Below, piece after piece: positions 3,323-60,534 of a stretch of DNA of 64,000 nucleotides (positions are counted from its first letter, which is position 1; each line of letters begins with the position of its first letter). A model generated the notes under the pieces. It was not told the DNA's origin. It searched no databases and worked only from the letters and a program-made list of their open reading frames with translations. Position numbers and translations under genes: made by a program. The stretch is from a virus. Where the stretch lies: positions 40,858 to 104,857 of IMG/VR virus record IMGVR_UViG_3300025133_000042, one strand, 5' to 3'.

Positions 3323-4732
3323 TTAACTTTGATCCGAATATCTTGGATCTTTTTCGAGCACGTCAGTAATCTTTTCACTACTCTCTAGAGCTGTGACTGC
3401 TGATGCTTGTGCCTTTGCTCTTCGCTTTTCTCTGTAATAAGATCCAATATTATCAGCTAAGTTTTTTGTTTCAGTCAACAAAGTCATGACGTCGCCTTTG
3501 AGCTTTTCGGTATAGATTTCAGCTAGTTGGTCAATTCTATCTTGTGAGAGTTCAAGCGATCCGAAAGTGTGAAGGCCAATTTCAGCATGCAAGTCTTTAA
3601 TCTGCTTCCACGTGGCTTTCCACTGCGTCCCGGCGTCTTTGCCTTCTACTAAAAGCTCTTCTTTCATGAGTCTTTTTTCTCTGGCGTGGAAACTCTCTGC
3701 CATTTCGTTCTCGCGGTCCATAAACGCCGCCATGTCTCTCTCGCCTCCCGCTTTTTTCCTATCGAGTTCCGTGCGCTTCTTGAGGGCTTTCTTTTCCGCT
3801 GCAGCGATTTCTTCCGGGGTCCTAAACTGCTCAGCTTCTTTTGGGTTGTAGCCGCCAGCTTTCAAGAAAGCAGGAATCATTCCTCTTCCATAGCCAGGAG
3901 TCTGCATTATGGCGGCACCTGCTCGCATTCTATTTTCTTTAGAACCGTCAGCGGCCATGGCAGCAAAAGAGTTTTCAAGCTCTGTAGTGCGCATGCGACC
4001 TAGCAGCCCTTCACCACCGCCGACGCCTTCAATAAACGTCAAAAAGTTAGATCTATTGATTTCAAACTCCCAAAGCTGAAGCTGGTCTACGTTCTCACTT
4101 GGAGTGTACTTGAATGCAATTAGATACTTAATCATTGGTTCGCCGCGAACAATAAGATAATCGACTAAGTTTGTATAGCTTCCTTTGGTAACTCCCTGAA
4201 GGGTTAGCAGCTTCAGACTAACCGGAACTCCGCCACCGTAGTCCGAGAAGGCGACAAAATCTTCGATTGGAAGAGTGCCGCCGACCTTGCCAGCTATTTG
4301 CTTGCCACCTGTTAAGGCGGCCATGAAGCCCTCAAACACAAAGCCTGCGGCAGACTCGTTAAAATCGTTTAATGTTGCCTGCAGGGCCTCGATGACCAAC
4401 ATCATGTTAATGATCACGCCAGGAGATCGTTTTCTGGCTGCGGCCTTAGGGTCGAGAAACTTATTAAGGTCTAGTAGCTTCGCCTTGATGTCTCTACCAC
4501 CACGAACAACAGAAAATATTTTCATTATCTGTTCTCTATCTTGAGAGTTGGGATCTCCCCAGGCCTCAGAAGGAGTCCAGGAAGGAAGATCAACGTGCAT
4601 ACTGAATCGTCCGCCAGTGGATTCTTTGGCCTCTGTTAATAAGCCAGCGCCCGACAGCTCGGCTTCAACCAGCTTAGCCAAGTCATTTAAATTAAACTTC
4701 TCTGCATAAAAATCTTCAACGTACTTTTCCAT
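3323..4732 (-). CDS. Hypothetical protein, possible PD-(D/E)xK nuclease fold; candidate head-internal protein
   Basis: GFVFE...PIEDF...VSLK spacing; N-terminal LLTE; late-type motif upstream; GAGGAG SD before ATG at 4732. Confidence 0.55.
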   Translation of the reverse strand: MEKYVEDFYAEKFNLNDLAKLVEAELSGAGLLTEAKESTGGRFSMHVDLPSWTPSEAWGDPNSQDREQIMKIFSVVRGGRDIKAKLLDLNKFLDPKAAARKRSPGVIINMMLVIEALQATLNDFNESAAGFVFEGFMAALTGGKQIAGKVGGTLPIEDFVAFSDYGGGVPVSLKLLTLQGVTKGSYTNLVDYLIVRGEPMIKYLIAFKYTPSENVDQLQLWEFEINRSNFLTFIEGVGGGEGLLGRMRTTELENSFAAMAADGSKENRMRAGAAIMQTPGYGRGMIPAFLKAGGYNPKEAEQFRTPEEIAAAEKKALKKRTELDRKKAGGERDMAAFMDRENEMAESFHAREKRLMKEELLVEGKDAGTQWKATWKQIKDLHAEIGLHTFGSLELSQDRIDQLAEIYTEKLKGDVMTLLTETKNLADNIGSYYREKRRAKAQASAVTALESSEKITDVLEKDPRYSDQS

Positions 4733-5886: not shown

Positions 5887-6420
5887 TTACTGCCCTGCCA
5901 AAATTCTTTTTGCGACGCGGCGGGCGACCATGTTGACCACCTCGTCGAGAGTCTCCTCTGACTCTTCCAAGTTATTTTCCTTCTCTTCAAGAGTCTCCTC
6001 TGACTCTTCCAAGTTATTTTCCTTCTCTTCGAGCGGGTGCTTGGACTGCTCCATCATCTCCTCCTCAGGCTCAGGAGGAGGGCCTTCTTCCTCAGGAACA
6101 GGGACTTCTTCTTCGGCGGGGCCGGCGTCATCTTCGACTTCAATGTCGGCGCCGGTGTGCTGCTCAATAACAGCTGCCAGATCCCGGACCAAAGCCTCGA
6201 CATCGACGGAGCCGTCTGCTGGTGCCTCCATCTCATCTTCGGGTCCGGGGGAGAGGTCGACCGGCGCTTCTTCGGGCTCGGGGCCCATGTCCAGCTCATC
6301 GTCCTCAGACACGTACTCCTCTGTTAAGCGAGTAACAAAGCCATCAGCCAGCTTATTCATGTTGGCATATTTCATCATATTGCGAATTTCATTTTCTGTA
6401 AGAAGGTTTTTCATAAACAC
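5887..6420 (-). CDS. Highly acidic protein, probable prohead core/internal protein
   Basis: E/D/P-rich, LLTE/LTE motifs, C-terminal VARRVAKRIL, late motif at 6441-6448. Confidence 0.7.
   Translation of the reverse strand: MFMKNLLTENEIRNMMKYANMNKLADGFVTRLTEEYVSEDDELDMGPEPEEAPVDLSPGPEDEMEAPADGSVDVEALVRDLAAVIEQHTGADIEVEDDAGPAEEEVPVPEEEGPPPEPEEEMMEQSKHPLEEKENNLEESEETLEEKENNLEESEETLDEVVNMVARRVAKRILAGQ
5948..6030. repeat. 42-bp tandem duplication (EEKENNLEESEETL x2)
   Basis: Two essentially identical adjacent units. Confidence 0.9.
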
Positions 6421-20926: not shown

Positions 20927-22036
20927 TTATTCCTCTTTATCAATATCATAAAAGCTAGATGCATCTGCCTCTCTCTTTTCAAACTTTAATATAACCTCGT
21001 CGTCCATCAAAGTCAATACGCGGGTCCTAAATTTCTCACTTTTTAGCTTTTCCATCCATCTAGAAGCTTGAAATTTCTCAGAAGTTCCATCTTCATAGAT
21101 CAGGTTGTACCATGCGCCTTTCTGTTCGACGCTTTTAGAGCCTTTAATCGCCTCGAACCAGCTTTCTTCATCTTGAATGCCGATTCTGCTCCCCCACATA
21201 ATCTTGAAAGTGCATTGGCGGCCTTCGGTGCCAAAGCGACTCTTTTTAAGTGTCACTTTTACTTCCGAACCCACCCTAAAGCCATTCTCATCCAACAAAA
21301 AGCTGGCCTTGGCTTTACGCTTGGTCAGCCAAATGCGCAGAGAATAAGCATAATGCATTGCTTTCCCGCCCGGGGTTACGTAGGGCTCGACCATAGCCTC
21401 CGAAGGACTTCTTGTGATATTCGTCTTAAGCTGATTAAGCACGAGCAACGTTGATTTGCTATCGGCAATCGGAATCGCCAATTTGGACATTCCCTTTGCC
21501 AGAATACGAGCCTTGACTGCCATGGACGACTGTGGATTAAAATCTCCCTCGACGTCGCTAATGGCAGGCGTTAAGGCAAGGCTATCCCAAATAAATAGCA
21601 TTCTGTTGTCATTTGACCCTAGAAGCTCTTCGACGGTCTCCAGAACAAACTCCACACTTTGCGCCTGCACGTACAACAAATTATCTAAGTCGCAGCCCGC
21701 GTTACTCAAAAAAGTGGGATCGATGGCGGACTCAGAATCAAAATAAATGACATCAATACCCATCTTTTGGGCGTTTGCAGCAACTTGTGCTGCCATATAA
21801 GACTTTCCAGACCCTTCGAGGCCTGCAATTTCAACAATTTTGCCGAGTGGGACGCCTGCGAGGCGGCCCCTGCAAATCATTGAATCGAGCCAACGAGATC
21901 CAGTACCAATCCAATCGGTTACTTCTGTTGGATTTTCTTCTTTCAAATCGTAGGCAACATGCATGCCTGCTTTCTTGTTGATGAGAGTCCTCATCTCATC
22001 TAAATTCAACTTACCAAGTTTCTTTCTCTTCGCCAT
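20927..22036 (-). CDS. recA: RecA/UvsX recombinase
   Basis: GLEGSGKS, YFDSESAID, IWDS, LNQL, TPGGKA. Confidence 0.96.
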   Translation of the reverse strand: MAKRKKLGKLNLDEMRTLINKKAGMHVAYDLKEENPTEVTDWIGTGSRWLDSMICRGRLAGVPLGKIVEIAGLEGSGKSYMAAQVAANAQKMGIDVIYFDSESAIDPTFLSNAGCDLDNLLYVQAQSVEFVLETVEELLGSNDNRMLFIWDSLALTPAISDVEGDFNPQSSMAVKARILAKGMSKLAIPIADSKSTLLVLNQLKTNITRSPSEAMVEPYVTPGGKAMHYAYSLRIWLTKRKAKASFLLDENGFRVGSEVKVTLKKSRFGTEGRQCTFKIMWGSRIGIQDEESWFEAIKGSKSVEQKGAWYNLIYEDGTSEKFQASRWMEKLKSEKFRTRVLTLMDDEVILKFEKREADASSFYDIDKEE

Positions 22037-22304
22037 TGGAGCCTCTTATTTCCGGTATTTCCATTGTCTGATCAGGGTCTTGGACCGGGAGATCAAACGG
22101 TGTATAATTAATATAATCACGTTTTAGCTGGTCGGCAAGAGAAATCAGCAAGGGCTCTACTCGATCCACCTTGGTGACTATTTCCTCGTGCTGTGCGTGG
22201 TGTCGCTGGCGTGAGCTGAACATCTTACTTTCCAAAATAGCCCCAGTTCCCAGGCCAAGACAAAATAAACTTATTCCGAACCCAGTATATAATAAAGCTT
22301 CCAT
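22011..22304 (-). CDS. Small protein with N-terminal TM helix
   Basis: Hydrophobic residues ~4-24; late motif 9 nt before the ATG. Confidence 0.65.
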   Translation of the reverse strand: MEALLYTGFGISLFCLGLGTGAILESKMFSSRQRHHAQHEEIVTKVDRVEPLLISLADQLKRDYINYTPFDLPVQDPDQTMEIPEIRGSNGEEKETW

Positions 22305-22338
22305 AGCTATTACTAACTAGTGCTAAGTATTTGAAAAT

Positions 22339-22381
22339 AAGGCCTCTGTAAACCCAGGCCTTCCTGTGGGATATAGCTACT
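22339..22381 (-). repeat. Intergenic structured repeat, copy 1
   Basis: 43 bp, one mismatch to copy 2; includes the FKBP stop codon; AAGGCCT-N10-AGGCCTT hairpin. Confidence 0.9.
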
Positions 22382-22802
22382 CTAGCTCGACCAGCTCGAC
22401 TTCGAAGTTAAGATGTTTCCCCGCAAGGGGATGATTGTGATCTAACACAACTGTATCTTCCTCTACAGAAGCAATCGTCGCGGCCATCGGAGCACCGGTG
22501 TCGGTGGCGCCATAGACCGTCTCGCCGACATTGAAATCGAAATCACCAGGAAACATGTTCTTTGAAGTTGGCACTAAAGCGCTAGGGTTCACGGGGCCAT
22601 AGGCTTCTTCAAGCCTAAACGTCTTTTTCTCGCCTACCGACATTCCAACCACTGCAGACTCAAAATCTGGCAAGAGCATGCTCGAACCAATCTCGAAATC
22701 AAGAGTCTCGTCGCGATAATGCGAATTGTCGAACTCCGTTCCATCATCTAGGGTGCCTCGGTAGTGTACCTTGACTTTCTGTCCATTTTTTGCTTTAAGC
22801 AT
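22377..22802 (-). CDS. FKBP-type peptidyl-prolyl isomerase (SlyD/SlpA type)
   Basis: VHYRGTLDDGTEFDNS, EEAYG, insert-in-flap domain, DHNHPLAGKHLNFEVEL. Confidence 0.95.
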   Translation of the reverse strand: MLKAKNGQKVKVHYRGTLDDGTEFDNSHYRDETLDFEIGSSMLLPDFESAVVGMSVGEKKTFRLEEAYGPVNPSALVPTSKNMFPGDFDFNVGETVYGATDTGAPMAATIASVEEDTVVLDHNHPLAGKHLNFEVELVELE

Positions 22803-22826
22803 AATATAATCCTTATTTTTAAGTTC

Positions 22827-22869
22827 AAGGCCTCTGTAAACCCAGGCCTTCCTGCGGGATATAGCTACT
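22827..22869 (-). repeat. Intergenic structured repeat, copy 2
   Basis: 43 bp near-identical to 22339-22381; includes the stop codon of the ParB-like gene. Confidence 0.9.
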
Positions 22870-23806
22870 TGCCTAGAATATCTTCTAGTTCGTCAATATA
22901 AGACTTGAAAATTTTATTAAAAGCCCTCTTGGAGATTTGGTGGTCCTTGCACGTGCTCTGAAAATGCTTCAAAAATCCAACGGCAATAGACTCTGCGGCC
23001 CTGTTGGTCACATTGCCACCCTCTCTCTTATAATGTGTGGTAAAACTCCTTGCGTTCTTATGGTAGTTGACCGCACCATCAAAATAGGAAATAAAAGCCT
23101 CTTTCGCATTGGAGCGGCTATGCAGATCGGTGTTTTTGTAGATCAAAGCCATGGCGTGTAAAAGCTCTGCTTGACAGCTAGACTGCTCGGGCCATGTGCT
23201 TGTGTACAGCTTAGCCGCACGTTCCAGCGCTTGCAAATTGGTTGCAGCCAGCGCTTTTCGAAAAGCCTGAATCTTGACTCGCGTTTCAATCGTAGAGCCT
23301 GTGCAGCCAACAGAACTGCCTTTTTCCCCAGTTCCCATGCTAACAGTAAGTCCACACTTTTCTAGGCACTTTGCTGTTTTTCGTGCCTCGTCGTGGTTGG
23401 CGTGATATTGATGGACAAAAAGCTCTTCGCTGGTAAGACATATCTTGCCGGTCTTATTACGGTGAATAAACAACTCACTAATCTCCCTCTTGTCTTTCAC
23501 CAGACAAACAACAGCTTGCATGGTCTTGTCCTCTGGAAACGCCAGGTTCCAAAGTGCTCGACTGTGATCACCATCAAATAACAGCATCTCGCCGTCGGGG
23601 AGCCTCGCCACATGAGGGGGGTCCCACAAGCGCATATCAAATCCTAGCAGTCCGCCAACATACTGATTGAGTGCTTTTGTGGTTGTCTTTCTATTGAGAT
23701 ATGAATCGATATCAACAGAAACCTGCTCAATCGTTGGCTTCTTACTATAAGTGATCTTAAAATTATTCTGCAACGTAACTTCGTTGCCGTATATTGTTTT
23801 AGACAT
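22865..23806 (-). CDS. ParB/Srx-like domain protein (DUF6551-like)
   Basis: PPHVARLPDGEMLLFDGDHS (DGxH motif), E.SELFI..N. Confidence 0.7.
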   Translation of the reverse strand: MSKTIYGNEVTLQNNFKITYSKKPTIEQVSVDIDSYLNRKTTTKALNQYVGGLLGFDMRLWDPPHVARLPDGEMLLFDGDHSRALWNLAFPEDKTMQAVVCLVKDKREISELFIHRNKTGKICLTSEELFVHQYHANHDEARKTAKCLEKCGLTVSMGTGEKGSSVGCTGSTIETRVKIQAFRKALAATNLQALERAAKLYTSTWPEQSSCQAELLHAMALIYKNTDLHSRSNAKEAFISYFDGAVNYHKNARSFTTHYKREGGNVTNRAAESIAVGFLKHFQSTCKDHQISKRAFNKIFKSYIDELEDILGK

Positions 23807-23833
23807 TATTTCTCCTTTTGTAAATTAATGAAT

Positions 23834-23866
23834 AAGGCACCTCTTAGCCCGTGCCTTCCTGCGGCT
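23834..23866 (-). repeat. Intergenic structured repeat, diverged copy 3
   Basis: CCGCAGG-AAGGCAC-N10-GTGCCTT; stem retained by compensatory changes. Confidence 0.8.
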
Positions 23867-23878
23867 CATACAGAGAAC

Positions 23879-24340
23879 TTAGTTCTCAATATTCAAAACG
23901 CCTAGGTCGGTGCGAACTGACGTTGACCAGCCATTAAAGACGTACTCTGGGGTTGATAATACATCTCCAACAGTTGTTTTTACGCTAGCTTCTAGATTGA
24001 AGAAGCCACGCTTATAATCGTAACGCTCCGTAGAGCGTTCAATAAAGCCCATATCCCAAAAGTTCTCAGCGATCACATCACTAACAAATTCTTGAAATCC
24101 AGAATAATCACGAGGATATTCTTCTAAATAGTCGCCATCGCGAAGGTCCTGAATCACACTGTTAAGGAACCCAGTCGTAGCTACTAGGCCTGCCACAGTG
24201 TCGGCGAAGCCTGTATCGCGCAAAACTTCTTCTTCATAGCCATCCCAAGCATGAACGACATCGCCGCCGGTGGTATAAGTCAGAGTGATATTCTTGTCGT
24301 TGCTTAGGCCTGCGGCCTTTAGTTTCTGATGAAAACTCAT
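23879..24340 (-). CDS. Hypothetical acidic protein
   Basis: Start MSFHQK at 24340, directly after ssb. Confidence 0.75.
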   Translation of the reverse strand: MSFHQKLKAAGLSNDKNITLTYTTGGDVVHAWDGYEEEVLRDTGFADTVAGLVATTGFLNSVIQDLRDGDYLEEYPRDYSGFQEFVSDVIAENFWDMGFIERSTERYDYKRGFFNLEASVKTTVGDVLSTPEYVFNGWSTSVRTDLGVLNIEN

Positions 24341-24350
24341 TTTTTGTCCC

Positions 24351-25103
24351 CTAAGAACCAAGAAGCTCGTTAAAAGCAGCGTCAACTTCGGTTACCTGCG
24401 TGGATTTATTGTATCGACTTGACTCGCTTGAAACCTCCTCTGCGTCCTCTTCGTTTAAGAGGAATTCATCAAGCATTCCTTGAACCTCCTGCGGCGTCTT
24501 GCGAGAATTCTCAAAAACCACATTAAAATCAGGCACTTGGTCCAACATCGAGGAGATGGTATCTTCATCGCCGGCGAGTGGGGATGATTTACGACGGGGC
24601 GTGATAGTTGTCTGCGGGAACTGTGCGCCGGGAGGCTTTCCGTAGGTAAGAACAAGGTCAGTGCCCTCGTTAACATCAGTAATGTCTCCATACTCAGGAT
24701 TCAATACCAAGTTGAGCAGCTCCTTGTAAGCCATCTTGCCAAATCCCCAAAGGCGTACGCCTTGGTCTTCCTCACCGCGGACGAGAACGGGAGCGAAAAA
24801 GCGCTGACGGGCGCTCAAATTCTTTGCCATCTTGACGGCGTCATCTGACCCGTCGCGATAGAGTTGACGAACAAAATCATCCAAAGGATCTTCCTCTCCA
24901 AAGTTCTTCTTCGGGCTTAAAAAGCTTGCGTTCTTGCCCAAGTTGTAATGGAACCAGTACTCCTTAAACGGGTCGCCGTCAGAAGTGGGAACAATGCGAA
25001 TTGTCTGCTCTCCGTCCTCTGGGCGCCAAAAAGCACTCTTTCCGTTGCCGCGATTTTCCAAGGCCTCGCGCTTTGCCTTCATCTTCTCTAAATCAATACC
25101 CAT
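24351..25103 (-). CDS. Single-stranded DNA-binding protein (gp32-like)
   Basis: FWRP...IRIVP...FHY, GVRLWGFGK, YGDITD..EGTD, acidic tail ending AFNELLGS. Confidence 0.88.
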   Translation of the reverse strand: MGIDLEKMKAKREALENRGNGKSAFWRPEDGEQTIRIVPTSDGDPFKEYWFHYNLGKNASFLSPKKNFGEEDPLDDFVRQLYRDGSDDAVKMAKNLSARQRFFAPVLVRGEEDQGVRLWGFGKMAYKELLNLVLNPEYGDITDVNEGTDLVLTYGKPPGAQFPQTTITPRRKSSPLAGDEDTISSMLDQVPDFNVVFENSRKTPQEVQGMLDEFLLNEEDAEEVSSESSRYNKSTQVTEVDAAFNELLGS

Positions 25104-25134
25104 AGTCTTTCTCCTTTTGCTTTAAGCTATAGTA

Positions 25135-25156
25135 CGGTCAGCGAATATTCTGACCG
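25135..25156 (-). promoter_or_regulatory. Hairpin in the ssb leader
   Basis: CGGTCAG-AATATTCG-CTGACCG between a TATCAT -10-like box and the AGGAG SD. Confidence 0.5.
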
Positions 25157-25186
25157 GCTTTGTTATATGATAGCTACCATTTTTTA

Positions 25187-38702: not shown

Positions 38703-41700
38703 TTAGTCATCGAAGGCAGCACCTTGATTCGTAATGTTGAAGTCGATTGCAATGTACTCAATCGATTTCGCTGGCTTCAAGAAAATCTTAGCGTATAGCA
38801 CGTTTCTGTCAACCAAATCTGGCGTCGTAGTTGTATCGTCCAAGACTACTCGATAGTCTTCGAGGCCCATGCCAGCTTTCACGCTTTTCAAGAACGGCTC
38901 GACCTGGCCAGTAAATCGGTTCCAAGTGACCTTGCTATTCTGGTCAAATAAAACGCTGTTCGCAATTCTTGATATCTTCTTCTTAAGGAAGATGAGCAGT
39001 CTTCTGACATTTACCCTGTCGAGCGCGCTCGGTGTCGCTTGAAGCGTCTTCTGTCCAAACACGACGAGACCTTCGGATGGGAACGACGCGATTGGATTAA
39101 TATTAGCATCGTACAAATCATCTCTGTCCTTCTTCGAAAGCTTTTGCGTGACGTTCACAACAGGCAGACCTGCTGCGCCCTGAGAAAGGCCACCGCGGTT
39201 GAAACCAGCTGGCGCGAACCAGACGCTTGATTTTCTCTCAGAGTTCGACATGACACCCAGAGCTATTACCGAGGGCGGCATGAACAGCTTGTTGTTTGAT
39301 AGCTTGTCGACGATCTGCACATATGGGTAATATGCTGCAGCAAAACTAGAATCAATATTTCTATCTTTCATCAGCTTGACCGCGTTGTTAACGTCGCCTA
39401 GGCGTGCCTTGTAGCTGGTTACATCCTCTGCTGCCGGCGTGTAATCAGACTCGACATCGATAATTGCCATGGCGTCGGCGCGGGCCTCAACAGTGTCGAT
39501 GAGGTGCTGCGTCAGCGTTGCCGACCTGATATTTGGCGCGACAGCGAGGTTGTATTCGACATCTTCTGGATCTGAACATATATCGATGGCCTGCTTTACA
39601 GTATTGTAAGCGTAGGATGACTTTTCAGTCTGCCCATTAACGACATGGTGGCCAAAGGGATCCTTTTCTCTAATGTTCAAGCCATCGGAGCCTCCGAATA
39701 ATGGGAATGTGAATGCATCAGCGCCATACAGAATCGTCGCCTCCCAGCCTGTCCTGGTTAGCGCGCCCTTCGTATGACCGTCTTGATCCGCTGAGATCGA
39801 CAAGCCAGCTATACGGGAGCCCGAAACGTACGCATGACTCACGGTATCAGATACCCCCAGAGCATTAGACCCTGAGATGACGTCATCAAGCGTAAATATA
39901 TGAGGGATCTCAAGATTGGCGCCGAGAGAGCCCTCGTCAGAAAAGACCATCTCCGCGCCGTCCGAGTTCAGCAGGCGGTCCGGAAGACCCCTCAGGAGAT
40001 CGACCATGCTCTCATCATAGAGGCTGCTGGCTGAGCGATGAGTCCTCATGCCATGGAAGGCAGTTGCATTTGAAGGCAATGGGTTGTCCGAAGAAGAAAG
40101 CCTCATGGCGATAGTGGGGAACAAGAACGACGCAGTAAGATCGTGGGTGCCAGATGTTGTTGTGACGGCTCCAGTTAAATGGTAAACGGCATCGGCGAGC
40201 GATCGCAACGGAAGATCGGTGGTGCCGGCATTGGTGTAAGCGGTACCTGCGCCGGTGGCGCCGTCCGGGGTGTGGCTGTCGCCAAAGACTTGGAACTCGC
40301 CGATGGATGGCCCGGATCCGGTGCCCACAAGGGAAAATCCCTTGAACCTTGGGGGGCCATAGAAGCCAAAAGGCGCCATGGCGGGACTCGGCGGGCCTGA
40401 GTCTTCGATATCCGCATGCATCTCAATACGAACAAACTCAGATGCGTTATCATACTGTCCGTACTCTTTGTTCCGGCCTTCAACACTATCGAACTCAATG
40501 TACTTATCGCCAATTCTACTGGCAATGTAATTCGCTGAATTGGGATTCAAAGTCAGATTTGTATATCGCTCTACCTCGCGAATCTTGCCGTCGTTGTCGC
40601 TCAGCATTCTTAATGATAGCGTAAACGTCGACCATGGATTCGCATTGTTTTTAGGCGCTCTGATGTTTTCGATGCTTGCCTTGAGGTTGTGCATTTCGTA
40701 CGAGCCTGCGCCGCGAGAGTGAAGCTTGAAGAGCTTTGTTTGTGCGCGGGCATTAAATGCAGAATACGCGCCCATGTCCTGGCTGATAACCCAGCCAGAC
40801 TGGGCCGGGCGATGGGCGTACTTATTGTTACCGAAAGCTAGCGAACCATTCGACAACTGAAGAACGATGCCCAAACTGCCGCCGGCTGCTTCCACGTGAC
40901 CATCGCCGCCGGTGCCGACGGTGTCTTCTAAGAACTGGTCATATGTTTCGCCCAGCCAATAAGCTTTGGCCGCTGTGGTGACACTTGCATTCGTTGCGGC
41001 CGGATTTGTGCTCATAACCTCTCGAATATATTCTTGGCTGTTTCTATCAAAGTTGACAGCAAACTTCTCCACATCCACACTAGGATCCGTGCCAGATATG
41101 ACTTCTAGAGTAAATGTGTGATTGCTGCCCTGGCTGTACATCATCACGCCTGCAGAGGCCGTCGTTTCGGAGCACACCACGGCTGCCGAGCCGCTGGCGC
41201 GCACGGTGCCAGACAATCGCAGGGCAGAGCCGCTGTTGCAGTAAACTATTGCAGCCAATGCGCCGGTGGAGGGCGTCAGGTCCGCGCCGATGGTGGCATC
41301 TGTAGAAGATGAAGCACAAATAAACAAGCCGTAAGCGCCGCCTTGGTGAGCGATGCCTTGCGCGGTGGCAAACTGCTTTTCCGTTGCCCAGCCAGCATAT
41401 CCTGCTGTGGCCGCCTCTGAGTGTTCTTCGCCAAGGAGACGCACAACAGTGATAGGCGAATTATTCTGCAACCAGGCTTGTGCTGCATATGAAGCATAAG
41501 TGGGACTTGTGAGGATGCCGGCACCGTTTCTCCAGACATCCTGCGGGGGGATACCAGCGTTTGGTGTGCCAAACTTTTCAATAAACTCCGAAAAAGAGTC
41601 GACTCTGACAGGGCGCATGGCTGGGCCTCTGCGAGTGGCGCCAATAACCAGCGGGCCAATATTGGCCGGGCTGGCTGGCAAGGCAGAATTATCAATTTCA

Positions 41701-57300: not shown

Positions 57301-60300
57301 CTATAGTTTTAATTTGTTTTTTAAAGTATCAATTATTGTCTTTAAATCTGTTATTTGTTCTTGCTGTTCTTTGACTGCCTCAACCAAAAGAGCAGTCATG
57401 CTAGCATAATCGATACCAAGAGTGTCTTGATTGCCTGCTTTATAAACAACTTCGGGAACAATTTCTTGTATCTCTTGGGCGATGAATCCAATATCGGCCT
57501 TACTATCAGAATTCCAAGTATATGAAACGCCTCGCATAGATAAAACTTTATCAAGGGGGTTTTCAAGAGTTGCGATATCGTGCTTCAAAGTTTCATCCGA
57601 ATAAGTAATAAACGCATTTGCTTTCACGGTACCATAAGTGCTGTTATTGGGAAGAACCACGCCGGTGCCATTGCCAACAGTAACGATATCGCGCGCAGAG
57701 CCCGCGACCAGCGCGTTTAAAATAATGCTACCGTCTTCTTCTCCATCGGTAACATCCTCTGAGAGGGCTCTAACATATGCATAAGTAATCGCTTCTGGGG
57801 TGCCAGCGTCATTTTCACCAACAAAATTAATGTCACCTAACACATCGTCATCAGCCGCGTTGGCGCCGTCTTTGTTAAATTTAAGTATTGCGCCAGCGGC
57901 GTCATTATTCGTATTTTTAAGCTCGAAAACTGGTATAGAAGAGCCGCCGGACGACGCTAGAATAAGTCCAGTATCTTCAGCGTGAGTCAGTGTAATCTCT
58001 TTATCTGCGCCGAAATGAATCGAGCCCGAATTCGATAGTAATATAAGATCATCGCCTATAACTGCATCTAGAGCAACAGACAAGCCACCGTCAGTTTGCA
58101 AGGATCCGTCGGTTGTTGAAGTGGCTGCTGTCGTATCGTCAGTCACAATCCTTCCGTCAGCCGAAACGGCGCCTGCGGTTGTTATAGTCACACCAGAACT
58201 GCCGATCCCGCCCCCGAAGGTTGCGCCGGCGGTGCAGACCATTGATGCCACAGTTGCAACGCCAGTATCAAGCGTACTAGAACCATTGTCAATGTTGCCG
58301 AAACCACTTGTAACACTACCAGCGTTCAACGCCCCCACAGTAACCATGTTTCCGCCGCCAACAGAGTTGGCATCGAAATAAGTCTGGAACGTTTGCACTG
58401 TCGTATGTTTCATAGTACCGGCGTCGTTGGTGAAGATACCATCGCCATTGGCAACGGCAGTGGTGCCTACACTAGAGCCGCCGTCCAAGAGCGCAAACTC
58501 AGCAGCAGTAACAGCCGAGGAGGCATCAGTCGCAGTGCCGGCCAGCGCAGGAATGTAATATGTACCTGCTGATAATGCTGGTAGTTTGAATGTCGCATCA
58601 GCTGTCGGGTCAACAACACCAAGAACTGTTTCGTGAGCATTTGGAGTAGTGCCCTCAAAAGTAAAGGAACTTGTAATATGAATAGTGGTGCTGTCCACAG
58701 TTGTTGTGGCGCCACTTACAGTCAAATCACCAGTGACCGTCAAGTTGTCGTTGATCGTGGTCTCCGAGGTGCTGTGACCAATACTAATTGCAGTTCCGGA
58801 AATACCAGTACCAATAGATACTGATTCGCTAGAGTTTGCAGTATCCACAATGAGGTAGGCATCGCTGCCTTGTTTAATCGTTAATGCGGTGGCAGAGTTG
58901 TCACTTACTGCGATATTAATATCTGTACCATCTGCGCTGATACTATCCAGTGCAATATCGCCGACATTGGTAACGTCCGCATCATTAAAAGATGTCGCGC
59001 CAAATGTGTTTGCTGCTGCTGTAGAAGTTAAGCCGGCTGCTGCAGTAACACCACCGCCATCTGCAATAGTAAGTGCGTTATCGCCGTCAGTATATCCAAT
59101 ATTGGCCGTTTGCACTTCACCAGAACAAAGCACGTTCCCTGTTGTTGTAACTGAATCGATATATGCGTCCTTCCAGCGTACGCCAGTTGTGCCTAAATCA
59201 ACACTGCTGTCTGTTTGCGGCCCGAAGAGGGAAGCGGAAACATAAACTTGCTCTGCGTTATCCGTATAGAAATGTATTTCATTGGCAGTTTCAAAATCAA
59301 TTTTGGTCTGAGCGTCTTCGCCTAGAACGAGATCCGTTGCAAGGACTGAGGTAATGCCTGTTTGTGCTCCGGCGAGCAGGACCGCGGTGCCCTCAACTGT
59401 AATTTGGCCAGATGATGCCCTTGCGATAGTCGTATCCGATGCGTGTCCAAGCTCAACTGTGCCGAGAACAACCAAAGCATCTGCAGACATATCCCATTGA
59501 ACATACTTGCCTGTAGTTTCACCAAAGAATTTGAAGTCGACACCATGATTATCTGCACCACCAATCAAGGTGCCCTCGGTATTTCCATCTGCGTCCCAGT
59601 GTACACCAACATGAGCAGCAGTGCCAGCAGTGTACATATATAAATCTTGACCCGATCCTGCACTTGCGCCGACCTTCGTAACACCGCTGACAGTCAGCCC
59701 TTGACTGTTCGTAGTAAGTGTTGCGCCAGGTTCATCAATGGTCTTATCGTCTCCATCACAGGCCATAATAACACCAGCAGTAGTGAAAGTGCTTCCTGCA
59801 ACGACGTCGCCGTCTTCGCCGCCGCCGACACTTGACATATCTGCAGATACATCCATGAACTGTTGCAAATACCAATTTGTTCCATCAAATGTCCACACTG
59901 TGATGTCACCTGATGCAGTAGTGATATTAGTTGAACCGCCCTTTAGAGTTCCACTCACATCAAAGATAACAGCACCAGTAGATATAACTGTGATTGTTTG
60001 GCCGGCGACTCCATCATCGAACGTTGTAAGTGTCTGTGAACTGGCATGAGTTTTGAAAAGATTTCCGGTCGCGACAGAAGGAGTCGTGTCGCTAGAACCA
60101 AATGTAACAAATGTTTCTGATGGACCGCTGAAGGCAGCTGCTCCAGCAACATGGAGCCTGCAGTTTGGACTAGCCGTTCCGATGCCGACGTTATCCATAA
60201 AGGAAACCGTGTTACCAGAACCAGATTGAAGAATTGAACCTGAAAAAGTAGTGGTGTCATAAAAAACACTAGAGCCACTCTTCTCAAACGTTCCTGAGAC

Positions 60301-60534
60301 GTTTAAACCACCAGAGACCTCCATTGTTCCTGAGACGTTTAAACCACCAGAGACCTCCATTGTTCCTGAGACGTTTAAACCACCAGAGACCTCCATTGTT
60401 CCTGAGACGTTTAAACCACCAGAGACCTCTACTGGAGATCCGCCGGAAAGCGTGCCTTTAATTTTAACATTATTTTCAAAAGTAACAAGGCTTCCGGTTG
60501 TTGGAAGGATGTTATTTACATAAAGATTGCCCAT
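57301..60534 (-). CDS. Tail fibre/spike with C-terminal peptidase S74 intramolecular chaperone
   Basis: GIGT.SP..LHV repeat; SDETLK...RGVSYTW...GFIAQE...LLVEAVKE coiled coil. Confidence 0.9.
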   Translation of the reverse strand: MGNLYVNNILPTTGSLVTFENNVKIKGTLSGGSPVEVSGGLNVSGTMEVSGGLNVSGTMEVSGGLNVSGTMEVSGGLNVSGTFEKSGSSVFYDTTTFSGSILQSGSGNTVSFMDNVGIGTASPNCRLHVAGAAAFSGPSETFVTFGSSDTTPSVATGNLFKTHASSQTLTTFDDGVAGQTITVISTGAVIFDVSGTLKGGSTNITTASGDITVWTFDGTNWYLQQFMDVSADMSSVGGGEDGDVVAGSTFTTAGVIMACDGDDKTIDEPGATLTTNSQGLTVSGVTKVGASAGSGQDLYMYTAGTAAHVGVHWDADGNTEGTLIGGADNHGVDFKFFGETTGKYVQWDMSADALVVLGTVELGHASDTTIARASSGQITVEGTAVLLAGAQTGITSVLATDLVLGEDAQTKIDFETANEIHFYTDNAEQVYVSASLFGPQTDSSVDLGTTGVRWKDAYIDSVTTTGNVLCSGEVQTANIGYTDGDNALTIADGGGVTAAAGLTSTAAANTFGATSFNDADVTNVGDIALDSISADGTDINIAVSDNSATALTIKQGSDAYLIVDTANSSESVSIGTGISGTAISIGHSTSETTINDNLTVTGDLTVSGATTTVDSTTIHITSSFTFEGTTPNAHETVLGVVDPTADATFKLPALSAGTYYIPALAGTATDASSAVTAAEFALLDGGSSVGTTAVANGDGIFTNDAGTMKHTTVQTFQTYFDANSVGGGNMVTVGALNAGSVTSGFGNIDNGSSTLDTGVATVASMVCTAGATFGGGIGSSGVTITTAGAVSADGRIVTDDTTAATSTTDGSLQTDGGLSVALDAVIGDDLILLSNSGSIHFGADKEITLTHAEDTGLILASSGGSSIPVFELKNTNNDAAGAILKFNKDGANAADDDVLGDINFVGENDAGTPEAITYAYVRALSEDVTDGEEDGSIILNALVAGSARDIVTVGNGTGVVLPNNSTYGTVKANAFITYSDETLKHDIATLENPLDKVLSMRGVSYTWNSDSKADIGFIAQEIQEIVPEVVYKAGNQDTLGIDYASMTALLVEAVKEQQEQITDLKTIIDTLKNKLKL
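60290..60429. repeat. Perfect 36-bp tandem repeat x3.9 (EVSGGLNVSGTM)
   Basis: Units start at 60290, 60326, 60362 and 60398. Confidence 0.95.

Follow-up and report, generated by a model that had tools for sequence, protein, structure and literature searches.

The gp32-UvsX interval and its repeated element

The window, a stretch of 64,000 nt of viral DNA (positions 40,858 to 104,857 of the IMG/VR record IMGVR_UViG_3300025133_000042), carries on its minus strand the genes of a gp32-type SSB and of a UvsX/RecA-type recombinase, which border a variable interval of accessory genes and three copies of a short repeated element. From the gp32 side to the UvsX side, the features are as follows.

24351-25103, minus strand: gp32-type SSB gene (Pfam gp32, 1.2e-13; phrog_1192), conserved left border of the variable interval
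23879-24385, minus strand: ORF168, accessory gene of no family, abutting gp32 with no element in between
23834-23866, minus strand: predicted pseudoknot, copy 3, downstream of ORF168; core 23864 to 23834; stem AAGGCAC/GUGCCUU, loop GGGCUAAGAG; putative pseudoknot stem AGCC (23866-23863) with loop GGCU; covariance-model score 50.3 bits
22865-23806, minus strand: ORF313, accessory gene with copies 3 and 2 on either side
22827-22869, minus strand: predicted pseudoknot, copy 2, downstream of ORF313; core 22857 to 22827; the 43-nt repeat contains the TAG stop 22867-22865 and is identical to copy 1 at 42 of 43 nt; covariance-model score 58.5 bits
22377-22802, minus strand: FKBP-type peptidyl-prolyl isomerase gene (Pfam FKBP_C, 4.9e-18), with copies 2 and 1 on either side
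22339-22381, minus strand: predicted pseudoknot, copy 1, downstream of the FKBP gene; core 22369 to 22339 (CCACAGG, stem AAGGCCU, loop GGGUUUACAG, stem AGGCCUU); putative pseudoknot stem CCC (22370-22368) with loop GGG; the 43-nt repeat contains the TAG stop 22379-22377; covariance-model score 59.9 bits
22011-22304, minus strand: ORF97, small gene after copy 1, overlapping the UvsX start
20927-22036, minus strand: UvsX/RecA-type recombinase gene (Pfam RecA, 2.6e-36; phrog_97, 2.1e-55), conserved right border

The minus-strand motif has exactly three matches in the window (22339-22369, 22827-22857 and 23834-23864; none expected from 100 shuffles), and the whole 104.9-kb record holds no further copy. 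An earlier note on this DNA had described these repeats, and its description holds: copies 1 and 2 are 43-nt repeats, 98% identical, which begin 2 nt ahead of the TAG stops of the FKBP gene and of ORF313, respectively; in copy 3, AAGGCAC/GTGCCTT replaces AAGGCCT/AGGCCTT, that is, two compensatory pairs with the 10-nt loop kept. Copy 3 lies after the TAA stop of ORF168, and each of the three copies folds into the 7-bp hairpin in RNAfold predictions. The FKBP, ssb and recA identities proposed in the same note are likewise confirmed by Pfam, with PHROGs agreeing for ssb and recA. The ParB-like nature ascribed to ORF313 found no confirmation in Pfam or PDB sequence matches, and an ESM-atlas hit to DUF6551 is a lead only.

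The same genes recur among relatives in other arrangements. The FKBP-type isomerase gene is the commonest cassette gene, and homologues of ORF97 occur in 19 loci, in every one of them just upstream of UvsX. In one relative (L079) a copy of the element separates the ORF168 homologue from gp32, and in another (L142) the ORF313 homologue is likewise bracketed by two copies, but sits downstream of UvsX.

A small fold supported by covariation

In the family consensus, the motif CCGCAGG leads into a 7-bp stem, whose two arms enclose the loop GGGNUUACAG, and then into a tail, A-W-U-U-U-U, in which T makes up 62-75% at positions +3 to +6 and A 75% at +1. The stem contains 3-5 G-C pairs in its 7 bp and closes a loop of 10 nt; four of the seven stem pairs covary, and stem pair 4 is G-U in 27 instances.

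A pseudoknot had been suggested from the window copies, with CCC pairing to GGG in two of them and AGCC to GGCU in the third, and covariation throughout the family now supports it. The base directly 5' of the CC (column 6) covaries with loop position 4 (column 24), the pair being A-U in 65 cases, C-G in 49, G-C in 4, U-A in 2, a wobble in 7 and unpaired in 11. Taken alone, the pseudoknot helix is paired in 88% of the alignment cells, against 77.5% in shuffles (0 of 500) and far above slid controls. This covariation leads to the prediction, from the aligned sequences, of a sense-strand pseudoknot of the H type. Its support consists of one strongly covarying pair and two invariant G-C pairs; in copies 1 and 2 of the window the covarying pair reads C-U and the shifted CCC/GGG register is required.

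In the proposed fold, stem 1 would be formed by the N-C-C just 5' of the motif and the G-G-N of the hairpin loop, loop 1 would be GCAGG, stem 2 the 7-bp hairpin and loop 3 UUACAG, and the A/U-rich tail would come next. Loops 1 and 3 are nearly invariant. The 99 matches in loci oriented by UvsX are all on the coding strand. The earlier note had spoken of a structured RNA or ssDNA element; the G-U pairs and this strict sense-strand orientation favour the RNA over a dedicated ssDNA site.

Size, spread and novelty of the family

A pattern scan of IMG/VR gave 88 exact matches in 75 loci, where about 0.2 were expected, and all 88 pair perfectly at three stem positions that the pattern had left free. 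A strict scan yielded 194 instances with 72 distinct cores, and a covariance model (R1), of the kind called for in the earlier note, found 219 matches (99 + 120) in IMG/VR loci, from which 145 distinct instances were aligned. The observed conservation is strong: the commonest core is unchanged even where the UvsX of the phage shares only 40-43% identity with that of the window. Complete genomes (170-190 kb) carry two or three copies each, nearly all between gp32 and UvsX; element, gp32 and UvsX occur together in 130 loci, and the linked UvsX is found on at least 599 IMG/VR contigs. The carriers are marine T4-like phages that form a large uncultured clade. With blastn, the locus had no match in cultured phages and the 31-nt core only partial chance matches, and the nearest UvsX of a cultured phage is about 31% identical. 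At least 120 loci in cellular genomes, among the matches listed for a loose pattern, were all GC-rich chance matches lacking the A/U tail, which does not establish that the element is absent from cells.

The element had been called unrecognised, and Rfam 15 indeed has no match at the gathering threshold in the whole window and nothing relevant up to E = 10 over positions 22250-23950. By comparison of sequences, it appears to be an undescribed, strongly conserved small RNA, predicted to be a pseudoknot, of a class new to Rfam 15. As far as its candidates are described, a structured-RNA prediction study (PMC10690425) comes nearest: it likewise drew on IMG/VR and has 12 candidates directly upstream of GP32 genes, as well as 10,006 unnamed ones; the former are set apart from the present element, which lies downstream of gp32, by their described position only. 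The family would be a new and well-supported class of small RNA pseudoknots, so far seen only in an abundant uncultured clade of large marine phages, and the motif, or model R1, is a handy marker of the gp32-UvsX locus in metagenomes.

Placement between genes

The observed placement is narrow at both ends. The element follows a stop codon at a median distance of 9 nt (mode 7-9 nt) and precedes a start codon at a median of 26 nt, with 114 of 148 instances at 20-34 nt. A co-directional gene follows within 70 nt in 140 of the 148, and ends of transcription units are almost never marked by it. Its upstream neighbour is gp32 in 63 of 136 unique instances, it never stands directly before the gp32 start codon, and its downstream neighbour is UvsX in 31 of 140 instances; altogether 47 unrelated clusters are represented among the downstream genes. 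Some instances lie near a start codon, yet the closest ORF of at least 60 codons on their upstream side is 150-240 nt away. The last copy in L098 stands ahead of a sigma70-like promoter, about 190 nt upstream of gp32; in L093 one copy is followed directly by a tRNA gene.

A promoter with the loop sequence TTTACA as its -35 box was considered and rejected: its spacing does not fit, the only TA-like stretch being 7 nt from TTTACA, and by position weights no -10 hexamer occurs in the 25 nt downstream.

Positional equivalence with terminators and possible function

In 20 distinct relatives the scan found no element between gp32 and UvsX. In about 14 of these a GC-rich hairpin, in most cases with a T-run behind it, is present in the same geometry, and in another four there are long GC-rich stems that close large loops. 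Element and hairpin have replaced one another at least four times on the UvsX tree. Because the element fills the slot that a canonical intrinsic terminator occupies in these relatives, its most likely role would be that of a 3' end or insulator of the upstream cistron. It resembles intrinsic terminators and attenuators in being a hairpin right after a stop codon, with a U-rich run behind it; it differs from them in its weak stem of only 7 bp with a 10-nt loop, in a U-run that is short and offset, starting 2 nt past the stem, and in a conserved 5' flank and loop that form the predicted pseudoknot, which terminators do not need. The U-tracts of the three window copies are poor (AUUUUC, GAACUU and AUUCAUU), as had been remarked, and a scan for the intrinsic-terminator consensus does not call these copies. 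The conclusion drawn from this in the earlier note, that the element is no plain terminator, was too strong in view of the short U-run of the family and the intrinsic terminator found in the same slot in relatives.

We therefore picture a cis-acting mRNA element of about 33 nt (about 45 nt with the tail), which would be transcribed within the gp32-to-UvsX operon and would act on the upstream cistron either as a leaky terminator or attenuator or as a processing-and-protection structure, with gp32 expression set above that of the following genes; a compact pseudoknot with conserved loops could provide, within a small space, a fold that is stable or is recognised by a factor. Termination, attenuation or stabilisation, and with them any regulatory role, are what we infer from sequence comparison. 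The reading as a whole, namely a terminator- or attenuator-like mRNA 3'-end element whose repeats would drive the shuffling of cassettes in the manner of the promoter-early stem-loops (PeSLs) discussed below, has in our judgement an even chance of being right, its activity and its recombination mechanism being the conjectural parts. Short, portable and interchangeable with terminators, the element is easy to assay and could serve as a compact intercistronic insulator.

A post-transcriptional element of stability or processing would occupy the same slot. Here an RNase E-type host enzyme would cut the A/U-rich tail, or the spacer before the element, and the pseudoknot would shield the new 3' (or 5') end from exonucleases, so that neighbouring cistrons would decay independently. 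The tail is A/U-rich, free of G and right behind a stable structure, a setting typical of RNase E sites; a fold that has to be mechanically robust would also be in keeping with a pseudoknot whose loops are conserved. A parallel exists in the T4 gene 32 mRNA, which is processed by RNase E at -71 beside a pseudoknot and at +831 beside the stop codon (PMC3014915). In the present clade a conserved, covarying 5' hairpin, different from the element, precedes the gp32 gene, and the gp32 mRNA would be bracketed by structures. The interchange with canonical hairpin-plus-U-run terminators fits termination at least equally well, and we regard the stability reading as rather unlikely.

The near invariance of loops 1 and 3 is left unexplained by a plain terminator role. 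On the boldest reading, the pseudoknot is more than a stand-in for a terminator: it would be a signal read by a phage factor, as a regulated terminator or antiterminator or as an operator reporting, for example, the status of free gp32 or ssDNA, and would also define a portable unit of gene plus signal. This stronger version we consider unlikely; if it were true, lytic marine phages would own an integron-like, integrase-free platform for gene capture beside their recombination genes, with the same control wired to the expression of every captured gene.

Near-invariant loops would suggest sequence-specific recognition, as in a translational operator of the downstream gene, in which gp32, ribosomal protein S1 or some further RNA-binding protein of the phage would nucleate on the pseudoknot and spread over the A/U-rich stretch to the ribosome-binding site. 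The model is the autoregulatory operator of gene 32 in T4, T2 and RB69 (PMC3014915, PMC535899); the T4 operator is bound by gp32, which spreads cooperatively over UUAAA/UAAA repeats to the ribosome-binding site. The layout is alike, with a small H-type pseudoknot (about 28 nt in T4 and about 33 nt here, where it is supported by covariation in stems 1 and 2), an A/U-rich unstructured run, a Shine-Dalgarno sequence and AUG, in gp32-region mRNA of a T4-like phage; the narrow distance from element to start codon and the genes concerned, which adjoin gp32 and include UvsX, its competitor for ssDNA, point the same way. The T4 pseudoknot, however, lies 5' of gene 32 and represses that gene, whereas the present element lies 3' of it, in several copies before unrelated genes; the two have no sequence similarity, and gene 32 of this clade has a different conserved leader hairpin of its own. 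Furthermore, the downstream genes belong to many unrelated clusters, the copies before a promoter (L098) and before a tRNA gene (L093) have no cistron to repress, and an ordinary terminator hairpin can take the place of the element. Translational control of this kind is thus quite unlikely, and the 3'-end role stays the preferred one.

Gain and loss of single genes

The earlier note had claimed that the element brackets single accessory genes between ssb and recA. The placement at gene junctions in more than 100 relatives bears this out, and gene content at the locus is far from fixed: across relatives the gp32-UvsX interval measures 58-2797 nt and contains 0-5 ORFs and 0-4 copies. Whether copy number tracks the number of inserted genes had been put as a question; the two do rise together, but loosely (Spearman rho 0.52).

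Indels bounded by the element were observed in five pairs of relatives (L145/L149, L085/L111, L124/L089, L086/L084 and L131/L084), whose flanking genes are 78-91% identical, and in the first pair L145 carries a hybrid copy of the element. Such indels are partly expected under any mechanism, because the survivors are limited to those that leave genes intact. A single pair more than 95% identical in nucleotides and differing in cassettes was found, and its 149-nt difference is not at the element. Whole arrays have also been relocated, upstream of gp32 in L098 and downstream of UvsX in L142. Copies within one genome are slightly more alike than copies from different genomes.

Since several near-identical copies in one orientation lie within 0.2-3 kb of the genome in phages with a very active recombination system, they could serve as crossover points for homologous recombination, by which single units of gene plus element would be deleted, inserted or moved in an integrase-free cassette array. 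Of the integrase-free recombination point that had been proposed, the bounded indels, the hybrid copy and the lack of a tyrosine integrase (PF00589) in the window's record and in three near-complete relatives (G002, G003 and G006) speak in favour; a dedicated mechanism is not called for, ordinary homologous recombination being simpler. The element, then, appears to mark the points at which single genes are gained and lost, most simply through ordinary homologous recombination as we infer it.

These properties recall the PeSLs, the regulatory cassettes that are mobile in T4-type phages (Arbiol et al., 2010, PMC2839356; Comeau et al., 2014, PMC4122927). Like a PeSL, the element occurs as an intergenic repeat on either side of single genes, most of them orphans, within a hyperplastic region of a T4-like genome. 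Both place a stem-loop in a terminator or attenuator position before a Shine-Dalgarno sequence and start codon, and both are associated with bounded indels between related phages and chimeric junction copies, with no need of an integrase; here this is seen in the variable ORF content, the five pairs and the L145 hybrid. PeSLs differ in containing a sigma70 promoter with -35, -10 and an AT-rich UP region, whereas the present element has no such promoter, lacking a -10 signal, and leaves only 20-34 nt between stem and start codon; in measuring about 100 bp with a polyG/polyC hairpin, against about 33-45 nt and a predicted pseudoknot with nearly invariant loops; and in that the element is present at two or three copies per genome, confined to the gp32-UvsX neighbourhood and conserved across very distant phages. 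An RNA structure is here tied to the way accessory genes come and go as modules at a single defined hotspot flanked by two core recombination genes, which makes testable the long-discussed question of how T4-like phages manage to shuffle single genes with no site-specific recombinase.

Integron attC arrays, with promoterless single-gene cassettes in one orientation and a folded repeat between them, offer another likeness, and the element might accordingly be a dedicated recombination site, folded as ssDNA and read by a specific enzyme, its RNA structure being incidental. Single-gene cassettes bracketed by the element, arrays at three places around gp32 and UvsX, the hybrid copy and two copies that precede an HNH endonuclease gene could be read in this sense. 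The tyrosine recombinase that would go with it is missing from the genomes named above, there is no R/L box architecture, and the element has G-U pairs on the sense (mRNA) strand, a fixed placement relative to stop and start codons, and an A/U tail and Shine-Dalgarno sequence behind it; a terminator hairpin can replace it, and a hybrid junction is an ordinary outcome of homologous recombination, which most simply explains exchange at the element. A dedicated site is very unlikely.

Weaker readings and minor observations

A small-molecule riboswitch aptamer of about the size of preQ1-I, or a functionless selfish repeat, might be thought of for a compact, roughly 33-nt predicted pseudoknot with conserved loops that is repeated and apparently mobile. 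The neighbouring genes have no common pathway, no expression platform is seen and the Rfam scans found nothing; against neutrality, the sequence is kept across phages whose core proteins are only 40% identical, with compensatory changes and strict orientation. We hold either to be most improbable. About as improbable is a recoding signal, in which a pseudoknot 5-8 nt past the stop would promote frameshifting in the upstream gene or reading through its stop codon. The stop-to-CC spacer of 7-9 nt is that of known stimulatory pseudoknots, and TAG stops are enriched ahead of the element (42%, compared with 24% among long ORFs), but these stop-codon counts are not independent, since nearly one upstream gene in two is gp32. 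The spacing varies from 5 to 14 nt, so that no single frame leads through the element, and the genes upstream of it bear no relation to one another. In each of the three window copies, reading on past the stop leads to an in-frame stop within 17-25 codons, which rules out a fusion there.

An alternative anti-structure, in which CCUCC of the spacer would pair with GGAGG of the stem arm, was set aside, the pairing being 52.6% family-wide against 50.9% in shuffles. The CCUCC/GGAGG complementarity itself is seen in gp32-adjacent copies of one sub-clade.

Element Copies in the Window and Their Gene Order

Three copies of the element, at 22339-22369, 22827-22857 and 23834-23864, were recovered both by reading the minus strand of 22200-24000 and by a pattern search (three matches against none expected from 100 shuffles), which bears out the three copies described in the earlier note; they are the only ones in the full IMG/VR virus record of 104,857 bp, estimated to be 58% complete. 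Copies 1 and 2 form a 43-nt repeat family with 98% identity, as defined by a repeat finder, and the repeat starts 2 nt ahead of the TAG stop in both the FKBP gene and ORF313, whose former label, "ParB-like," was not confirmed. Copy 3 comes after the TAA of ORF168 and, as had already been noticed, carries two changed stem pairs, both compensatory, with the 10-nt loop retained; a 7-bp hairpin is predicted by RNAfold for every window copy. The features, with every gene on the minus strand, are listed in gene order.

Gene order around the element in the window
PolA fragment, ORF115 and ORF279: ahead of gp32
25101-25165, minus strand: gp32 leader element, hairpin at 25135-25156 (alignment A3)
24351-25103, minus strand: gp32 (SSB), after ORF279 and before ORF168
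ORF168, copy 3, ORF313, copy 2: in this order downstream of gp32
FKBP, copy 1, ORF97: in this order downstream of copy 2
20927-22036, minus strand: UvsX, last, after ORF97

The window has no element between gp32 and ORF168, which abut or overlap (24351-24385, minus strand), and in the relative L079 a pseudoknot separates the ORF168 homologue from gp32; the copy at this junction seems to have been lost in the window. ORF97 (22011-22304, minus strand), which has no family match, has homologues in 19 loci, each directly upstream of UvsX and overlapping its start, usually with an SD that is not evident; it may be a small, conserved UvsX partner.

A Pseudoknot Family in Uncultured T4-Like Phages

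A generalised pattern gave 88 exact matches in 75 IMG/VR loci, against a chance expectation of about 0.2 computed from the count of specified bases. With UvsX as bait, at least 599 related contigs (73-81% identity) were found, of which 80 were kept, and a strict scan over all loci yielded 194 instances, 148 of them unique, with 72 distinct cores. The element alignment (A1) comprises 145 distinct instances, and the covariance model built (R1) gave 99 + 120 matches in the loci. The consensus reads (A/C)CCGCAGG, RRGGCNY, the loop GGGNUWACAG, the complementary arm and a tail, AWUUUUWAA, from which G is excluded, with the SD and start codon next. Some variant copies carry a long loop insertion (R1 matches of 50-78 nt) and two tandem copies stand back to back (L033, about 4098-4160 and 3587-3637, minus strand; G002:C1:152025-152102; L063:1919-2009; L048:12697-12787).

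Four of the seven stem pairs covary (G-C/A-U, A-U/G-C, A-U/C-G and U-A/C-G) and another shows 27 G-U cases. Because the strict scan demanded a paired stem, the unbiased evidence comes from the 88 pattern matches, all of which pair perfectly at three stem positions left unspecified by the pattern. Pseudoknot pairing was not a selection criterion in any scan. The base immediately 5' of CC pairs with loop position 4 as A-U (65), C-G (49), G-C (4) or U-A (2), with 7 wobbles and 11 unpaired cases, and the next base of the helix is paired in 87/145; for the pseudoknot helix alone, 88% of cells are paired vs 77.5% in shuffles (0/500), and slid-register controls go down to 3-68%. The pseudoknot proposed in the earlier note thus finds support in the covariation of the family. 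Window copies 1 and 2 read C-U at this pair, so that the alternative CCC/GGG register applies, and copy 3 forms AGCC/GGCU. Since G-U pairs occur and orientation is strict (99/99 matches in UvsX-oriented loci on the coding strand), the structure is assigned to the sense strand, and the simplest reading of these sequence data is that the element acts as RNA. Loop 1 (GCAGG) and loop 3 (UUACAG) hardly vary, which may reflect either stabilising loop-helix triples in a very small fold or reading by a factor.

The element has no Rfam match, in agreement with its first description as unrecognised, and was not found in cultured phages, the closest cultured UvsX being about 31% identical. Neither Rfam nor the literature searched has the motif, which represents a new class of pseudoknot with good support from sequence comparison; it may be one of 10,006 candidates left unnamed in PMC10690425.

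Placement and the Terminator Slot

Relatives with complete or near-complete genomes have just 2-3 copies in 170-190 kb, so the element is neither a general-purpose terminator nor a common repeat. Element, gp32 and UvsX occur together in 130 loci, including nearly all those found by the DNA pattern alone. The upstream gene is gp32 in 63/136 instances and the downstream gene UvsX in 31/140, the remaining downstream genes falling into 46 clusters, including FKBP (16), small orphans, HNH endonuclease and ClpP. The element lies a median of 9 nt (mode 7-9) from the stop codon and 26 nt from the start codon. The most frequent core has exactly the same letters in phages with gp32 and UvsX just 35-43% identical to those of the window, so the RNA either outconserves its flanking proteins or moves between phages.

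Stops 5' of the element (145 instances) are TAA in 67, TAG in 57 and TGA in 11, compared with 47, 24 and 29% for long ORFs from these loci, which amounts to an excess of TAG and a deficit of TGA; the counts are non-independent, gp32 being upstream in almost half. In L037, and also L004 and L016, a copy 6-7 kb from UvsX stands directly 5' of an HNH homing-endonuclease gene (L037:9033-9602; Pfam HNH_5, 5e-17).

The gp32-UvsX gap is purely non-coding (58-197 nt) in 36 loci, or about 30 distinct intervals. Roughly half of these contain one pseudoknot; in most of those without it the gap carries a canonical GC-rich hairpin, its loop short or GNRA-like, and mostly a T-run behind it, and in a few the stems are long and GC-rich and the loops large. 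Stop/hairpin/SD-ATG geometry is identical in pseudoknot and hairpin intervals. The earlier view that this is not a plain terminator goes too far, as the family tail includes a short U-run and relatives without the element have a canonical hairpin in its slot. Junctions of at least 25 nt hold the pseudoknot in 120 cases, a hairpin with T-run in 15 and one without in 7; a further 40 show nothing obvious, several being degenerate copies. In a quickly built maximum-likelihood tree of UvsX (105 rows), the pseudoknot already occurs at the deepest branch and continues from there, and the terminator state requires at least four changes on well-supported branches and up to eight overall. One array, in L098, ends in a pseudoknot beyond which come a sigma70-like promoter, about 190 nt of leader and gp32, and in L093 (2962-3040) a tRNA gene, no protein gene, lies within about 8 nt 3' of a copy; both cases link the element to the upstream cistron's 3' end. 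The gp32-UvsX spacers of L112, L152, L139 and L144 are of a third type, with 12-16 bp GC-rich stems and large loops with CCUCC, distinct from both pseudoknot and simple terminator.

Cassette Gain and Loss

The 111 distinct gp32-UvsX intervals span 58-2797 nt, with 0-5 ORFs and 0-4 element copies. Gene content is thus variable, as the cassette proposal had anticipated, and copy number tracks it loosely, with a Spearman rho of 0.52, in phylogenetically non-independent counts; with the same non-independence, no inserted gene is present in 18/20 intervals without the element vs 18/91 with it. L145 and L149, with flanking genes 87-91% identical, differ by exactly one "ORF74 + element" unit, and the single copy of L145 is a hybrid, its 5' part and its 11-nt loop being those of L149 copy two and its 3' arm and flank those of copy three. 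L085/L111, L124/L089, L086/L084 and L131/L084 show the same flank pattern. In the window, copies 1 and 2 are near-identical 43-nt direct repeats 488 nt apart with the FKBP gene between, a layout expected to permit its loss. An array lies upstream of gp32 in L098, and another lies downstream of UvsX in L142, with two copies on either side of the ORF313 homologue. Copies are slightly more alike within genomes (4.14 differences) than between genomes (4.90), a value as low in 4/2000 permutations. No tyrosine integrase was found in the record or in three near-complete relatives, in line with the suggestion of integrase-free cassettes.

Mechanism and Known Systems

The reading with the best support is that of a cis-acting pseudoknot in the mRNA, which would work as a leaky terminator/attenuator or would protect and process the 3' end; as a by-product, copies would undergo homologous recombination, which could shuffle single genes. 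Among known systems, the promoter-early stem-loop (PeSL) of T4-type coliphages comes closest; it combines a promoter with a stem-loop terminator, and chimeric elements at indel junctions and mini-circles are described for it (PMC2839356, PMC4122927). The element lacks the promoter, and is thus PeSL-like in working yet no PeSL; in its role at cassette junctions it is a novel variation on the PeSL theme. A similar layout is seen in the pseudoknot operator of T4 gene 32 (PMC3014915, PMC535899), which is located on the opposite side of the gene; any binding of gp32 to the element is putative.

A separate hairpin of 8 bp, with compensatory changes at 8/8 pairs in the gp32 leader alignment (A3), is conserved across the clade in the gp32 5' leader, just 3' of a sigma70-like promoter and 25-40 nt ahead of the start codon, with a conserved loop (about GRRAU-UNG) and 3' flank (ACUNUA). 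With the pseudoknot at the 3' side, the gp32 message is bracketed by two structures. The leader hairpin is likely a gp32 operator or 5' stabiliser, and is possibly among the "upstream of GP32" candidates of PMC10690425.

Elsewhere in the window, tandem direct repeats at 60283-60462 (36 nt, four copies) and 5941-6066 (42 nt, three copies) are probably coding repeats.
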